This document shows positions 9,330-23,017 of a stretch of 64,000 nt of DNA, piece by piece (within the stretch, counting starts at the first letter, position 1; each line of letters begins with the position of its first letter). The notes under the pieces were generated by a model. The model had not been told where the DNA came from. It saw nothing but the letters and a program-made list of their open reading frames with translations, and ran no database searches. Source of the stretch: Candidatus Altimarinota bacterium (GTDB lineage: Bacteria; Patescibacteriota; Gracilibacteria; UBA1369); assembly GCA_963677745.1 (NCBI GenBank), contig OY782391.1:1216001-1280000 (forward strand), given 5' to 3'. A program made the translations under genes and the position numbers.

Positions 9330-10229
9330 ATGAAATTTTCTGTTAAAAAATCAGTTGCCGGAATTGTGGCTACATTATTTATGTTTTCATTGTCACCCAT
9401 AGCTCTGGCGGGCGGCTCCAGTTATGAATTTACGACTTATGTGCGAAGCGGTCTGGTCAAAACCGGTTCCACCCTGCCCGAAGCTCTGCGGATCAATGTT
9501 CAGGTATACATGAATCCAAATATCTTTAAGATGAATCAGATTGGTATAAAAACCGTCAAGATCAGCTGTGAAGGCGATGATGCCCTGGAGTCCGCCCAGT
9601 TGAAACTGGGGAACACGGTACTGGCTTCAACCAACTTTGTCCCGTCGACTCTGGCTTCCAATTGGCATAAAGCACTTCTCCAGCCCCCATCCCTGATTCT
9701 CGACAATGACACTGTACATAATCTGGGCATTGATCTGAAAAGCCGCCCCAACCTCAAGGGCAACCAGGTAGTGATTTGCGAGGCAGAAATATTGGAACAC
9801 GATAAAATGTACAATAATGCGCTGGCGGATGTTCAAGACCTGGACTTTGCCAACATTGACCAGGATAATCGAGCCATGATCGTAGCCACAGACTCCGGAA
9901 AGTTATTCTCCAGCGACCAAAATTACCGTTTTTTGGATATGACTCAGCCTGTTTATTTTGGCGATATACTCACTATTTCGGGTACGGTTTCCAAGGTCAA
10001 AACCGGACAATATCAGATTTCCACTTCCTTCGCCGATTGGGGAAAGGCAGGGCTTTATAACGTGATGATTCCTTATTTGGATTTAAGTCCGGTAAAGTTT
10101 GACATCACCAGTCCCCGTTTTTTCACAACAGAACAATTGAAGCCATATAAGACTTTTTCCATTCAGGAAATGCACCTCTATGACCAACCGGCTGCCAACG
10201 GCTCGGTTGGGAAAATTACTCTGAAATAG
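9330..10229 (+). CDS. secreted hypothetical protein
   Basis: Signal peptide MKFSVKKSVAGIVATLFMFSLSPIALA; beta-rich mature part. Confidence 0.75.
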   Translation: MKFSVKKSVAGIVATLFMFSLSPIALAGGSSYEFTTYVRSGLVKTGSTLPEALRINVQVYMNPNIFKMNQIGIKTVKISCEGDDALESAQLKLGNTVLASTNFVPSTLASNWHKALLQPPSLILDNDTVHNLGIDLKSRPNLKGNQVVICEAEILEHDKMYNNALADVQDLDFANIDQDNRAMIVATDSGKLFSSDQNYRFLDMTQPVYFGDILTISGTVSKVKTGQYQISTSFADWGKAGLYNVMIPYLDLSPVKFDITSPRFFTTEQLKPYKTFSIQEMHLYDQPAANGSVGKITLK

Positions 10230-10659
10230 TCCTGACTGCTTCCTTTACCGCCCATTTATGGAAATCCCGCCCCGGACCGTTTAGAAATTCCTCCACCGTT
10301 AACCAGTAGGGGACATGGTCCGGTTCCGTTGCCTGGGAAGGCTCAAAACTGATCATTCTGGCGACGTAAAAAGTCGCCAGTTTGTTCAGGTTTTTCAGTT
10401 TAGGTTTCAAAAAATACTGATTGGCTTTACCCAAAAAACGCAGGTCGGTGATTTCACAGCCTGCTTCCTCCATCGTCTCGCGCCTGGTTGCAGTTTGATG
10501 GTCTTCGCCGGCTTCCACTCCGCCTCCCGGCAGATGGTAGACATCGCGGACTTTTAAAACCAGAAGTTCCTGGCGTTCATTAAACACTATGGCATAGGCA
10601 CAAATCCGCTCAGTAAACTCACCCGGATGTTCTCCGAATTGTAAAACTAGCTCGTCCAT
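10216..10659 (-). CDS. NUDIX hydrolase
   Basis: Nudix box GGGVEAGEDHQTATRRETMEEAG. Confidence 0.95.
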   Translation of the reverse strand: MDELVLQFGEHPGEFTERICAYAIVFNERQELLVLKVRDVYHLPGGGVEAGEDHQTATRRETMEEAGCEITDLRFLGKANQYFLKPKLKNLNKLATFYVARMISFEPSQATEPDHVPYWLTVEEFLNGPGRDFHKWAVKEAVRTISE

Positions 10660-10940
10660 TTTTATTTTCCCAAAATTTTAATGGTGGGCCCAGCAGGACT
10701 TGAACCTGCGACCAATCGGTTATGCTTCTCACTATCACTTTCGTGATCCCTTTCGGGTTTGTAAGCTGGACTATCCCTTCTCCCTCGAGGGGAGTCTGCC
10801 GTCTAGTCTCTACACCTTCCGCACCGAAGCGCGGCTTGGCTCGGGATTACCATTGTGTCGCCACTTTAGGCTTCCCCGAATTTGACAGATTATCATTAGA
10901 AAATTGCTTCTCTAACAGCCCTAGTACTCAAAAGAAAAGC

Positions 10941-10949
10941 TGATATACT
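10941..10949 (+). promoter_or_regulatory. extended -10 promoter for the HNH gene (leaderless transcript)
   Basis: TG-A-TATACT ending 6 nt before the ATG at 10956. Confidence 0.55.
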
Positions 10950-10955
10950 ACGGTT

Positions 10956-11321
10956 ATGAAAAAACACACTAACTGTACAATTTGCTCAAAACCTCTTGAT
11001 GGAAGACAAACGTTATTTTGCTCTATCAGATGCAAAAACGTTTATCACCAAAGCTATCAATCCCAGAAACAACGAGCATTAAAAAGAAAGTCAAATCTGG
11101 TAAAAGAAGCAGGAGATAAATGTACTCGCTGCGGATATAATACGAATCTTGCTGCTCTCGCCTTTCATCATCTTGATCCAAAAAAGAAAGATTTTAAACT
11201 TGATGCCAGATCTCTCTCTAATAGGACATTGGAAAAAATTGAACGCGAATTAAGCAAATGCATATTATTATGCCACAACTGTCATGCGGAAATTCATAAC
11301 CCAGAGATGAGTCTTTCTTAA
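10956..11321 (+). CDS. intron-encoded HNH homing endonuclease with N-terminal Cys4 zinc finger (antisense to the intron)
   Basis: CTIC...FCSIRC; CTRCGY...LAFHHLDP...CILLCHNCHAEIH. Confidence 0.9.
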   Translation: MKKHTNCTICSKPLDGRQTLFCSIRCKNVYHQSYQSQKQRALKRKSNLVKEAGDKCTRCGYNTNLAALAFHHLDPKKKDFKLDARSLSNRTLEKIERELSKCILLCHNCHAEIHNPEMSLS

Positions 11322-11423
11322 GAATCTTTAAGCCGACTGCTCTAACCACTGAGCTATGGGCCCATTTTTCAATGTGCATCTCCGCCTGTTGCAGCCGCCT
11401 GCTGCCTTAAAATCCATACCAAA

Positions 11424-11499: not shown

Positions 11500-12204
11500 T
11501 TAACTGCTCTTCTTGGTCTTGATCAGACTGATGTCAGGTACGTTATCTGTCAGTGAGCATGATTCCATCAGAGAATAACCTTCCTTCTCAAAGGGACGGA
11601 TTATATTGTCGGCGTCTTCGCTGTGCATTCCGGTTGCGGAAGCTGCCCAGCCCGCACTTACCAGACTAGCCTGAATGTCATCGCAAACCTGTTTTAAATC
11701 TACGTTTTCAACTTTATAACTGAGTGAAGCCATGGTGTCGGCACTGAAATAGCTGAAATCAGTGGCACCACTTGGGCTGGGTAAATCCGCCGGTGCATCG
11801 GATGGTCTTGCCGCACCTTCCCCCCCCTGAAATGTACTTACTTTTCCCTGGGTGTCCGTCACTGTCATTATATTTCCATCTGTTTTTAACACTTCCTTAC
11901 CACTCTCGTCTTTGATTACCACATTGTCTCCTCCGCCTGATCCTTCCACCAGTGTTTTGCCGGTATTGTCAGTCACCTTAAAGTTGGCGTCTTTGCTGCT
12001 TCCGTCAATTGCCATATTGCCATCCTTGGTTTGCACCGTGAATTTTCCGTTTTCCAGATCGTCAAATTTCACCTTAACCTCTCCGTTGGAGGCTGAGTTA
12101 ATAATGCCTTCGGCGAGTTTGTTGCCAATTTGATCCTCCAGATTCTGACAGCCTGCCAGAATCAGAGCGGCTGCCGCTCCGGCCAATAGAATTTTTTTGT
12201 TCAT
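11500..12204 (-). CDS. lipoprotein
   Basis: MNKKILLAGAAAALILAG-C lipobox; start refined to ATG 12204. Confidence 0.8.
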   Translation of the reverse strand: MNKKILLAGAAAALILAGCQNLEDQIGNKLAEGIINSASNGEVKVKFDDLENGKFTVQTKDGNMAIDGSSKDANFKVTDNTGKTLVEGSGGGDNVVIKDESGKEVLKTDGNIMTVTDTQGKVSTFQGGEGAARPSDAPADLPSPSGATDFSYFSADTMASLSYKVENVDLKQVCDDIQASLVSAGWAASATGMHSEDADNIIRPFEKEGYSLMESCSLTDNVPDISLIKTKKSS

Positions 12205-12229
12205 GTCTTTCCATTTATGAAATAAAAAC

Positions 12230-13189
12230 TTATTCACTTATAACAAAGGCATCTCGTTCCGACAAGTTTGTTCCGTAGCCAAATATTACCGGAAATTTGT
12301 CACGCACCTCGCCTCTCAGATATTCAATGTCATCGATTTCCAGCGCGTCAAAATGGTCAAGCACATGTTCCTGCAGAAAAGACTGCAGCTGCCGAGCGGC
12401 CTCCTCGCTTCTGCATAACTCCATCAGACGGGCACCCGGTTTCAACGTTATGGGCAGATTGTTCCGGAATTCAAATTGGACATAATCCTGTTTGTCCAGA
12501 TTATAGGCAATAATGTTCCTGGCCACATGACCGGAAGCCTGGGCTTTATCCATCAGTTTGGCAATCAGCGCAACCCGGTCATTATCTGCCGGGACTTCAA
12601 ATCTGTTATAAATTGGGATGATTTTTTGCGCTTGTTCCCTGGGTAGTGATTTGTGCAGTGCGTACTTGGCCCACCTTGGTTCCAGCTTCTTTTTTCTGAT
12701 TCCGTCCAGAGTTCCCTGATTGGTAAGGACTACATCGCCGGTTCCGATTTCTCCCACATCATGGACTATTATCATCGTCAGAAGTTCGTGCCAGACGGAT
12801 CTGTCTTCACCCGTGATTTCAGCATAAAGCGCCGGGTATTCCCTTTCAATCAGATTACACCACTTTATCAGGCCCAATACATGATCCAGATCGTTTTCAT
12901 GGAAATCAGGATTCATTTTTCGGGGTTGGTCCTTCCAGGTTACATTCTGCCAGCGCAGGGTTTTTTCCAGTCCTGCGACCAGTCCCTGTCTTACCTCTCT
13001 CCTGACTTGAAGATATTCAGGTTGAAAACTCCTTGGTAGAACATCCAAAATTGGATCGGACTCACGTCGAAGCTGCAAATCATGTGAGGATAAATATTTG
13101 GCCCGGCGTTGGAATCCAACCTTTGGTGAAGTGACAGTATCTTGTTCCGCTTCGCTTTTTAATCCGGTCCAGTCTGATTCAAAAGCCAT
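12230..13189 (-). CDS. HD-domain protein (YfbR/5'-deoxynucleotidase-like)
   Basis: ENDLDH...VHDVGEIGTGD...MDK motifs. Confidence 0.8.
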   Translation of the reverse strand: MAFESDWTGLKSEAEQDTVTSPKVGFQRRAKYLSSHDLQLRRESDPILDVLPRSFQPEYLQVRREVRQGLVAGLEKTLRWQNVTWKDQPRKMNPDFHENDLDHVLGLIKWCNLIEREYPALYAEITGEDRSVWHELLTMIIVHDVGEIGTGDVVLTNQGTLDGIRKKKLEPRWAKYALHKSLPREQAQKIIPIYNRFEVPADNDRVALIAKLMDKAQASGHVARNIIAYNLDKQDYVQFEFRNNLPITLKPGARLMELCRSEEAARQLQSFLQEHVLDHFDALEIDDIEYLRGEVRDKFPVIFGYGTNLSERDAFVISE

Positions 13190-21752: not shown

Positions 21753-21901
21753 AGATCATTTTAGTCGGATTTGACTGAAAATAAATATACCTGATTCAAC
21801 ACGGGAAAACTCGCTCTATTCCTAACGAATTTGAGTAGCTAAGGATTTGAAGAAAAATATAAAATATGTTAAAATAAATAGAAATATTTACATAAAAATA
21901 T

Positions 21902-23017
21902 ATGAACAACGATCTTCTCAACACCGGGAAACAACATCCTGTGGACCGTAAAAAGGCTTTTAATGTAATGCCGCTGCGCGTTCAGACTAATTCGGGGCGG
22001 AGTCAAATAGAACAGTGCCGGAAGGAGGAACTGGCTAAAATCAATGGGTTTATCAGCGGGGTTGACTCAGCCGGTGTCATTGAAACCGTGGCCAGATCAG
22101 GAAATACCTCTATGATAAATTATTTGGTACTTTCCGGAACAGAAAATGGTCAGCAGATTGTCTGTTTAAGTGCTGAAGACAGCCCAAGCCGTCTTAAAGA
22201 AGAACTACGACACATAGTGACGGATAACGAAACTGTCACAATATTGCTCGATGAGTCGCCGCATTTATTGAATTGGGAGGAAGAATTAAAGCGGACACCT
22301 GATAAAAACGATAGAGCCGCGCGAGACTCACAGACTGAAATTAAAAATTTTTTTGAATACTTGAAAGAACTGATCTCTCAGAAAAAAGTTAAAATTATTT
22401 TGTTGGCGCACGCTGGCATGGATGAACAGGGAAATACTACCGGTGACGAAATGGTGAAGTGGGGACAAAGCCGTTTAATCGATGGGGAATCAACAATTCC
22501 CAAAACCAATTTGGAAGTCATGAGTAAAGAAGGCCTGGCCCTGCTTTTCGAAATGCATCCCGAGCGGGAGAACTTTCCTCCTGAATTGATCTCTGCCAAG
22601 GAGGACATAGTGGCTTATGTTTGGGGACCAATGCAACTGAACGCCTATCTGGACAAATATTTGGAAAAGCGGGATCAGGGCGAAACCGACCAGCAGTCTG
22701 CGGAGTTCGCCAGGAGCTTTATAATCAATCAGAATGAAATCTGGGATGTGATCCGCACCACAGCCGGTTTACGTTCCAATGAAATACTGCAACTAATGGT
22801 CAAGGCCGGTCTGGGGGGAATATCAATGGAAACTCTTACTGAGGAAGAAAAGAAAACTCTAAACGCTCTGCAATTTGCCCATCTGTTTGAAACAAAAGAT
22901 GGTATGGTGCGGGTAGGCGCTGGATGTCTTTATGATTACGCTAAAGTAAAGACTGAAACTGAGAAAACCCGCCGGCAGCAAATGGAGGCTCTGGATTCCA
23001 AATTCCAAAAAATTTAA
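21902..23017 (+). CDS. hypothetical protein, degenerate P-loop/AAA-like ATPase fold
   Basis: Walker-A-like ARSGNTS (Lys replaced by Asn), Walker-B-like ILLDES, helical C-terminus. Confidence 0.5.
   Translation: MNNDLLNTGKQHPVDRKKAFNVMPLRVQTNSGRSQIEQCRKEELAKINGFISGVDSAGVIETVARSGNTSMINYLVLSGTENGQQIVCLSAEDSPSRLKEELRHIVTDNETVTILLDESPHLLNWEEELKRTPDKNDRAARDSQTEIKNFFEYLKELISQKKVKIILLAHAGMDEQGNTTGDEMVKWGQSRLIDGESTIPKTNLEVMSKEGLALLFEMHPERENFPPELISAKEDIVAYVWGPMQLNAYLDKYLEKRDQGETDQQSAEFARSFIINQNEIWDVIRTTAGLRSNEILQLMVKAGLGGISMETLTEEEKKTLNALQFAHLFETKDGMVRVGAGCLYDYAKVKTETEKTRRQQMEALDSKFQKI

Follow-up and report, generated by a model that had tools for sequence, protein, structure and literature searches.

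We identify, in a 64,000-nucleotide stretch of the genome of Candidatus Altimarinota bacterium (contig OY782391.1 of assembly GCA_963677745.1, forward-strand positions 1,216,001 to 1,280,000; hereafter the window), a transfer RNA gene with the anticodon CAU that is interrupted by a 606-nt group I intron, which carries a gene for an HNH homing-endonuclease-like protein on its opposite strand. Our data make it very probable that this is the sole tRNA-Ile2 gene of the genome and that a mobile, bacterial tRNA-type group I intron with an antisense HNH gene interrupts it between U33 and C34. Positions are those of the window unless genome positions are indicated.

The split tRNA-Ile2 gene and its insertion site

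The gene consists of the following parts.

11363-10682, minus strand: split tRNA-Ile2(CAU) gene, a 76-nt tRNA plus a 606-nt insert
11331..11363, minus strand: tRNA 5' exon, 33 nt, tRNA positions 1-33, 3' end GUCGGCU
10725..11330, minus strand: group I intron, 606 nt, first nucleotide U11330, start UAAAG, end GAAG
10725, minus strand: terminal (omega) G of the intron
10682..10724, minus strand: tRNA 3' exon, 43 nt, tRNA positions 34-76, beginning CAUAACCGA, with the CAU anticodon first and CCA encoded

Joined in silico, the two halves form a regular cloverleaf of 76 nt that ARAGORN calls tRNA(cat), with a variable loop of 5 nt and so without the class II form. The split gene itself is seen neither by ARAGORN at its default settings nor by the Rfam tRNA model. 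ARAGORN with introns allowed detects it but labels it Leu(taa), i(37,606), because the intron begins with UAA.

To place the junction we compared 41 genomes of the same order, with a 13-nt piece of the 3' exon as the probe. The piece occurs once in each of 31 genomes, and 30 of these places were examined as loci (G028 was left out). The uninterrupted allele GAGCAGTCGGCT/CATAACC (here and below a slash within a sequence marks the point of insertion) is present at 16 of the 30, and 14, the window's own locus included, have an insert at exactly the same point; G036 (locus L036), with a one-base exon variant, has one as well. Neither a motif match nor an Ile2 intron was found in 9 of the 41 genomes. 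Exon sequence flanking the junction is 100% conserved relative to the uninterrupted alleles. Since no shifted junction fits these alleles, the insertion site, as read from the comparison, is unambiguously 33/34, between U33 and C34, and under the nomenclature of Williams 2020 its name would be 'Ile2.2Ug'.

The ARAGORN label corresponds to a junction 3 nt further downstream, which would yield a tRNA with the anticodon UAA. We rejected this junction and give it a negligible probability. Although the program reports Leu(taa) when introns are allowed, the 5' exon would then end in A and the intron in U, breaking the rules of a U before the 5' splice site and of a terminal G; the variable loop has 5 nt, a separate and normal tRNA-Leu(UAA) of 87 nt is present elsewhere in the genome, and all 16 uninterrupted alleles read CU/CAUAA.

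A first-pass annotation of the window, made from the letters alone, had placed the gene at 10682-11363 and its insert at 10725-11330, and both spans are exact. It had also predicted a perfect cloverleaf upon removal of the insert, a 33/34 site and a gene that standard tRNA finders would miss, which agrees with the ARAGORN call on the spliced tRNA, with the uninterrupted alleles of relatives and with the blindness of default ARAGORN and the Rfam tRNA model. Its strands have to be corrected: the minus strand carries the tRNA and the intron, the plus strand the HNH open reading frame (ORF).

Among contigs from four metagenome runs, the stretch is present whole in two studies. In other contigs from the same samples the match to the 5' exon ends at 11331 and ...GACCAATC(A/G)GTTATG follows at once; they represent uninterrupted CAU-tRNA genes of other organisms in the community.

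Identity of the spliced tRNA and decoding of AUA

The genome is one contig of 1,335,835 bases with 47% G+C and contains three CAU tRNA genes, the split gene included. One is the initiator tRNA-fMet (genome positions 21994-22068, minus strand), which has C1/A72 and the GGG/CCC anticodon stem and is uninterrupted. Another, also uninterrupted (genome positions 21874-21950, plus strand), lacks the initiator marks, and we take it to be the elongator Met. Initiator marks are absent from the spliced tRNA too, which has G1-C72 and lacks the three G-C pairs in the anticodon stem. It is identical to ileX of Escherichia coli at 66 of 76 positions, the differences being mostly paired stem changes, against 58 identities in 81 aligned columns with the genome's elongator Met and 46 in 77 with its fMet. 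The best E. coli match of the 3' exon is an annotated tRNA-Ile gene beside mug (86% identity over 43/43 nt), which is presumably the ileX locus.

TilS is encoded in the genome (TIGR02432, 172.9 bits against a cut-off of 93.6; PF01171, 170 bits), and no tRNA-Ile(UAU) and no second Ile2 gene is found among its 47 tRNA genes and one tmRNA. Judged by elimination and by likeness, the split gene is the sole tRNA-Ile2 of the genome. ATA makes up 2,916 of 302,343 codons (9.6 per 1000) in 527 ORFs of at least 300 aa. Given a single Ile2 gene, no Ile(UAU), a retained TilS and this number of ATA codons, decoding of AUA should depend on removal of the intron. The first-pass annotation had named both the Ile2 identity and this dependence, and had proposed the search for tilS and for further Ile2 copies; the likeness to ileX, the initiator marks on another gene, the TilS match and the single Ile2 gene all speak for it.

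We considered whether the tRNA is instead an elongator Met or a spare initiator, in which case AUA decoding would not be at stake. A CAU anticodon is common to Met and Ile2 tRNAs and does not by itself tell them apart, the spliced product is called Met by ARAGORN, and the acceptor pairs C4-G69 and C5-G68, the TilS determinants of E. coli, are not kept in all homologues. We nevertheless regard a Met identity as very unlikely: the spliced tRNA is closer to ileX than to either Met tRNA of its own genome by the counts given above, an initiator and an elongator Met are both accounted for by other genes of the genome, and TilS would be left without a partner.

The initiator gene at genome positions 21994-22068 has an 11-nt core, GGCTCATAACC, in common with the Ile2 insertion site, yet is uninterrupted. 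It is a potential ectopic target and a potential link to the classical fMet 33/34 class.

The group I ribozyme core

Two features of the core are referred to below.

10744..10945, minus strand: ribozyme core, Rfam Intron_gpI match, P2 followed by P3-P9
10915-10896, minus strand: P2 with a GCAA tetraloop

The Rfam group I intron model, RF00028, matches 10945-10744 on the minus strand with 60.9 bits (gathering score 50; E 5.5e-13; model positions 1-253), and this match at the split tRNA is the sole one in the 1.336-Mb genome. The assignment to group I, for which a match to this model had been suggested as a check, is thus sustained. The core has GAAA tetraloops on P9 and the distal P9 hairpin, GCAA on P2 and no P5abc. 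Subgroup IC3 is marked by the lack of P5abc and by GNRA tetraloops on P2 and P9 that dock into receptors, and the intron is at most a candidate for it. A U at the end of the 5' exon and a G at the end of the insert are in keeping with group I chemistry; the terminal G, already noticed in the first-pass annotation, is present in all 20 introns inspected, and a U.G pair stands at the 5' splice site.

The structure was examined in two alignments. A core alignment, from the guide sequence to the tRNA 3' end, comprised 20 homologues (12 distinct ORF-bearing and 8 ORF-less sequences). RNAalifold predicted 72 pairs in it, 41 of them with at least one compensatory double change, and the compensatory changes lie in P2, P3, the tip of P5, P6, P8, P9 and the distal P9 hairpin. 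A further predicted helix, between the guide sequence and the acceptor 3' strand, was dismissed as an artefact, because the 5' exon had been left out of that alignment. In a full-length alignment of the 12 distinct ORF-bearing sequences, P1 as specified is paired in 94.4% of cells, with U.G at the splice site in 12/12, and P2 has two-sided changes in all 8 of its pairs. The whole structure is paired in 92.8% of cells, compared with 38-54% for slid registers, and exceeds all 500 shuffles in both paired cells and covariation score. The window copy has lost none of the invariant core columns of the family, and the same exon/intron junctions are found in the 12 distinct ORF-bearing and the 8 ORF-less homologues. 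On these alignments, the recurring junctions and the covariation amount to far more than chance.

Guide sequence, P1 loop and a probable helix closing the reading frame

The intron recognizes its 5' splice site, according to our model, through the following elements.

10916..10921, minus strand: internal guide sequence GGGCUG, 409 nt downstream of the 5' splice site
11293..11301, minus strand: 5' arm of the closing helix, GGUUAUGAA, antisense of the His-Asn-Pro codons at the end of the HNH gene
10952..10960, minus strand: 3' arm of the closing helix, UUCAUAACC, antisense of GGTT-ATG-AA at the HNH start codon

P1 comprises the wobble G10920.U33, then G10919-C32, C10918-G31, the wobble U10917.G30 and G10916-C29, and G10921 pairs with nucleotide 1 of the intron. 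The guide GGCTG proposed earlier is part of this hexamer, and the interval of about 400 nt then estimated between the 5' splice site and the guide measures 409 nt, with the ORF inside the P1 loop. The corresponding interval in ORF-less relatives is a hairpin of 35-70 nt. Duplex folding of the flanks gives P1 together with a P1 extension a few nucleotides into the intron in 15/15 introns of the order.

The two ends of the HNH gene can themselves pair. This 9-bp closing helix is present in the minimum-free-energy fold of the 682-nt precursor, a fold with a z-score of -4.3 relative to 20 shuffles. It is 88% paired across the 12 ORF-bearing sequences, with changes that are one-sided and wobble-compatible, and in G035 it has a matched insertion (GGAUUAUGAA with UUCAUAAUCC) that column counts do not credit. 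We think that the helix is probably real.

The guide has a second possible partner that matches it no less well than the true exon, a local CAGCU (10942-10938, minus strand) just upstream, which the Rfam alignment takes for the 5' strand of P1. This CAGCU was considered as the remnant of an older exon and rejected: being unconserved in homologues, it is probably there by chance. It could compete with P1 in the window copy.

The HNH protein and its candidate promoter

Two features lie on the opposite strand of the P1 loop.

10956..11321, plus strand: HNH homing-endonuclease-like gene, 121 aa, antisense to the intron and filling the P1 loop
10941..10949, plus strand: extended -10-like box TGATATACT, 6 nt upstream of the HNH ATG, read by eye

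The predicted protein matches the Pfam HNH family (PF01844, 22.2 bits against a cut-off of 21.4) and PHROG HNH families with E values down to 1.5e-21. The N-terminal Cys4 zinc finger (C7, C10, C22 and C26) and the HNH core (C56, C59, H71, H72, N89, C106, C109, H110 and H114) are invariant in 11 aligned homologues, which fits the zinc-finger and HNH protein that had been read from the opposite strand at the outset. Treble-clef-like matches of the N-terminal cysteines to DUF2116 and YacG are both below cut-off. An AlphaFold model built from the homologue alignment has a mean predicted local distance difference test score (pLDDT) of 88.8, and its best Foldseek matches are HNH nucleases, namely Cap5, Gme HNH, T4 endonuclease VII and the HNH domain of Cas9 (best E 0.13). 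Nei-Gojobori ratios of nonsynonymous to synonymous change (dN/dS) are 0.13 for the window copy against G002 and 0.14 for L005 against L007, the remaining three pairs being saturated at synonymous sites. Low dN/dS and conserved residues together indicate a gene that is maintained as a protein and is, by this measure, under purifying selection. Its endonuclease activity and target are predictions.

In L087, L077 and L062 (G012, G013, G035), L005, L006 and L007 the HNH frame does not stop at the 5' splice site but reads on into the strand opposite the 5' exon, so that homing gene and tRNA exon share DNA in opposite orientations; three of these frames end ...SRLL, with a TAA stop complementary to the D-arm UUA. 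The HNH ORF of L004:452-1126, a Patescibacteria-group homologue, contains two in-frame TGA codons, one of them at a mostly-Gly position, which suggests that its host may read TGA as Gly (code 25).

In 11 of 12 ORF-bearing introns a TAnnnT hexamer precedes the presumed start ATG by 6-7 nt (by eye; in L006 it precedes an internal Met), and no such box was seen upstream of the ORF in the remaining one, L004. The longer TGnTAnnnT ends at this distance from the ATG in half of the distinct sequences (6 of 12), where the background in the loci is 0.001 per nt. Among more distant relatives with the ORF in sense orientation, a box TGGTATACT or TGCTATAAT (TGnTATACT or TATAAT) lies about 7-11 nt before the ATG in 6 of 8 inspected, in 5 with TGn. 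Because the same kind of box recurs in differing RNA contexts, a promoter is favoured over a constraint of RNA structure. With the 6-nt spacer, the first transcribed nucleotide would be roughly the A of the ATG, and the mRNA would be leaderless. A promoter and terminator scan, with 3 promoter-like sites found where 1.9 were expected, is uninformative; one of the sites lies 78 nt upstream of the tRNA and none coincides with the HNH start. We lean slightly towards a leaderless promoter belonging to the HNH gene itself.

Distribution and mobility

Within the order, the Ile2 intron is found in 15 of 41 genomes, 7 times with an antisense HNH gene (600-664 nt) and 8 times without an ORF (245-392 nt). 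One ORF-less intron, L060 (319 nt), keeps both ends of the ORF around an internal deletion. RF00028 gives E <= 0.001 in 24 of the 41 genomes and is above cut-off in 17. Relatives of the ORF were found at 27 loci in a protein-pattern scan that took one genome per species, and RF00028 reaches its gathering score in 22 of these loci.

The six closest ORF relatives (L003-L008; 58-89% identity, tblastn) have the core opposite the ORF strand and are all in tRNA(CAU) genes with the same ...GGCU/...G/CAUAACC junctions. Their hosts are a member of the Peribacteria, a Patescibacteria-group bacterium, a member of the Anaerolineae (Chloroflexi), one each of the Saccharibacteria and Krumholzibacteriia, and an uncultured unclassified bacterium known as a metagenome-assembled genome; L003 is apparently the same sequence as G002/L086 and was counted once. 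The antisense-HNH Ile2 design thus extends to five lineages beyond the window's order. HNH homologues in other phyla share 56-64% protein identity, and occurrence in such distant phyla at this identity points to horizontal transfer. The first-pass annotation had called the combination unusual, which holds with respect to the literature but not in nature, where it is common (15/41 genomes of the order and several other phyla).

As read from these alleles, the uninterrupted, ORF-bearing and ORF-less forms at one exact site are the gain-decay-loss cycle of homing elements, a model reportedly set out by Goddard and Burt. A different account would make the HNH gene a domesticated or decaying passenger that does not home, with the intron persisting by vertical descent only. 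HNH intron proteins are often nickases or co-opted, the activity of this one is a prediction, and 8 of the 15 intron-bearing relatives are ORF-less, one of them with a remnant. Against this stand the dN/dS of 0.13-0.14, the invariance of all catalytic residues and zinc ligands, and a patchy presence among genera of one family and in other phyla, at the identities given above, that fits ongoing transfer. We consider a mere passenger unlikely, and favour an HNH gene that is still an agent of homing.

More distant HNH relatives (L009-L029; 40-58% identity) are in sense orientation, with the ORF 5' of the ribozyme core. They are hosted by tRNA-Asn(GUU) at 35/36 and tRNA-Thr(UGU) at 33/34, in Saccharibacteria, Chloroflexi and others. 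In some of these sense-oriented relatives the open frame reaches back into the tRNA 5' exon. Within the order, tRNA-Thr(UGU) is split at 33/34 (CCGGCU/GUGA...AAG/UGUAACC) in 8 of 29 intron loci (L039, L045-L048, L050, L054 and L057), and tRNA-Asp(GUC) at 35/36 in one, L030. The tRNA-Thr(UGU) of the window's genome is intact.

Two other interrupted tRNA genes called by ARAGORN with introns allowed, a tRNA-Arg(gcg) with a 562-nt intron at genome positions 822602-823261 and a tRNA-Pro(tgg) with a 103-nt intron at genome positions 1205141-1205336, both outside the window, were discarded as false positives; both have poor stems and no RF00028 match. The split gene is flanked by a NUDIX hydrolase gene (10216-10659, minus strand; 57 bits), by an ORF of 245 aa (11500-12237, minus strand) with no Pfam family above cut-off, and by a gene for an HD-domain protein (12230-13189, minus strand). 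The flanking genes have no evident link to the intron.

Evidence weighing against the proposed reading

Several observations weigh against the reading that we propose. Splicing is a step that we infer from the conserved structure. P1 is short, with five exon pairs that include two wobbles, and its outermost pair is non-standard in 3 of 12 sequences. In the minimum-free-energy fold the exons pair as an anticodon stem and do not form P1; a 1993 paper by Zaug et al. is said, going by its title, to report that splicing of the Anabaena pre-tRNA needs exon pairing in the anticodon stem. The closing helix has no two-sided compensatory change in column counts, and part of the complementarity of its arms may be incidental, because coding constrains each arm as well, one through the His-Asn-Pro codons and the other through the start codon. 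The Pfam score of the HNH protein is barely over the cut-off, Foldseek returned no match at E <= 0.001 and a sequence search of the PDB no match at E <= 1. A generic sigma-70 scan makes no call at the proposed promoter, an omission explained by the -35 box that the scan demands.

A rival reading is that the split gene is a dead tRNA pseudogene, its intron or HNH gene or both being non-functional, with AUA read in some other way. Splicing is a prediction, P1 is short, and genomes of the candidate phyla radiation (CPR) are reduced and sometimes lack expected parts. We nonetheless hold a pseudogene to be very improbable. This is the only Ile2-type gene of a genome that has no Ile(UAU) and retains TilS, and ATA is used at 9.6 per 1000 codons. 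The window copy keeps all conserved core columns and an unbroken ORF that is under purifying selection, and the exon junction is 100% conserved with respect to uninterrupted alleles. The evidence is better accounted for by a working tRNA-Ile2 gene from which the intron would be removed.

Relation to known introns

Sources available to us as excerpts are marked as such below. Williams 2020 (bioRxiv 10.1101/2020.01.27.920355) lists four classical classes of bacterial tRNA introns, Leu.3Ug, Arg.5Ug, fMet.2Ug and Ile2.5Ug, all of them IC3, and 17 further classes; fMet.2Ug lies at 33/34 and Ile2.5Ug at 36/37. This agrees with what the first-pass annotation had stated of known sites, namely 33/34 in fMet and a position after the anticodon in the Azoarcus tRNA-Ile. 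The tRNAscan-SE 2.0 paper notes group I introns in tRNA-Ile2 genes from Azoarcus, Acidovorax and Burkholderia, and in tRNA-fMet genes from Gloeobacter and Synechocystis (excerpt, PMC8450103). CPR tRNAs with group I introns are mentioned by Lui et al. (excerpt, PMC8172020), and the excerpt of the Peribacteria genome paper gives 46 tRNA genes and reports no tRNA intron (PMC4736985).

The closest classical counterpart in position is the fMet intron of Synechocystis PCC 6803 (class fMet.2Ug, enzyme I-Ssp6803I), likewise inserted at 33/34 of a bacterial tRNA(CAU), with an endonuclease ORF in P1 (excerpt, PMC3073962, Table 1) that is a precedent for the placement seen here. In the window's genome the target core GGCTCATAACC is common to the fMet and Ile2 genes. 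The Synechocystis host is an initiator and its enzyme belongs to the PD-(D/E)XK family, whereas the window intron has an Ile2 host, whose tRNA lacks the C1/A72 mismatch and the GGG/CCC stem of an initiator, and an HNH enzyme. In Synechocystis, one start upstream of exon 1 transcribes the whole unit (excerpt, PMC11622646); the ORF of the window intron, in contrast, is antisense and has a -10 box of its own.

The intron in tRNA-Ile(CAU) of Azoarcus sp. BH72 (Ile2.5Ug, IC3) shares the tRNA species and a compact tRNA-type ribozyme, and the two cores may be alike in sequence. It lies after the anticodon, at 36/37, with a 3' exon of 40 nt (excerpt, PMC13168695), and is 205 nt long without an ORF, whereas the window intron lies before the anticodon at 33/34, outside the position that defines Ile2.5Ug, and is 606 nt long with an ORF.

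Antisense homing genes are known from nuclear rDNA introns (excerpt, PMC3073962). Those of I-DirII in Didymium and of L2066 introns resemble the window intron in having an antisense homing gene with a promoter of its own (excerpts, PMC3073962 and PMC9548176). They are eukaryotic and differ in their His-Cys box enzymes, Pol II promoters, spliceosomal introns and rRNA hosts, as opposed to a bacterial HNH gene in a tRNA with a sigma-70-like -10 box. The sense HNH introns of tRNA-Thr(UGU) and tRNA-Asn(GUU) in CPR bacteria and Chloroflexi share the HNH protein (40-58% identical), the position of the ORF 5' of the core and the box before the ATG; their ORF is on the tRNA strand and their hosts are Thr at 33/34 and Asn at 35/36, whereas here the ORF is antisense and the host Ile2. 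We found no published description of these sense HNH introns, except possibly among the classes in Table 1 of Williams 2020.

Openly searchable full text yielded no description of an HNH-bearing or antisense-ORF bacterial tRNA intron, subscription papers and supplements being outside the scope of that search. As a kind of system the window intron is known already, and introns like it are widespread in nature. What appears to be new is its combination of host and site relative to the four classical classes of Williams 2020, its HNH enzyme, and the antisense cassette with a candidate promoter of its own.

Proposed mechanism and implications

We propose that the gene is transcribed on the minus strand and that the last five nucleotides of the 5' exon, CGGCU, pair with GGGCUG 409 nt downstream as a P1 with a U.G wobble. 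The P1 extension and the 9-bp helix between the ends of the antisense ORF would bring these distant segments together, and the P2-P9 core would then catalyse guanosine-initiated splicing, ending after G 10725 and releasing a 76-nt tRNA. TilS would convert C34 to lysidine, so that the CAU anticodon reads AUA. The P1 loop is at the same time the reverse complement of the gene for the 121-aa zinc-finger and HNH protein. Transcription of this gene most likely begins at an extended -10 promoter of its own and gives an mRNA with no leader. The HNH product would cut uninterrupted tRNA-Ile2 alleles near GGCT/CATAACC, and repair would copy the intron into them.

A more far-reaching idea, which we regard as speculative and rather improbable, is that the HNH gene and its -10 box form an orientation-free cassette of promoter and leaderless ORF that colonises the P1 loops of tRNA-type group I introns, recognises the anticodon-arm DNA common to its hosts, CGGCT/NNTAACCG, and hops between Ile2, Thr and Asn hosts and between phyla. 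In the antisense form its transcript, with full complementarity to about 370 nt of the pre-tRNA, might then couple endonuclease expression to tRNA-Ile2 maturation and AUA decoding, with the intron as a regulator. If this were true, the coupling would operate by antisense pairing or head-on transcription, and the intron would be more than a passenger.

Short of that, our preferred reading of a split and spliced tRNA-Ile2 gene has several consequences. Standard tRNA finders miss or mislabel the gene, which would affect 15 of the 41 genomes of the order, and genomes of this uncultured radiation therefore seem to lack an AUA decoder. An antisense HNH homing gene with its own promoter would give a bacterial tRNA intron a layout known from eukaryotic rDNA introns. 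Compact tRNA introns that tolerate a P1 insert of about 400 nt closed by a helix may be of interest for RNA circularisation and ribozyme engineering, and the HNH enzymes would be new site-specific nucleases for the DNA of tRNA anticodon arms. For the organism itself, with its 1.3-Mb genome, the decoding of one codon would rest on the activity of a ribozyme.

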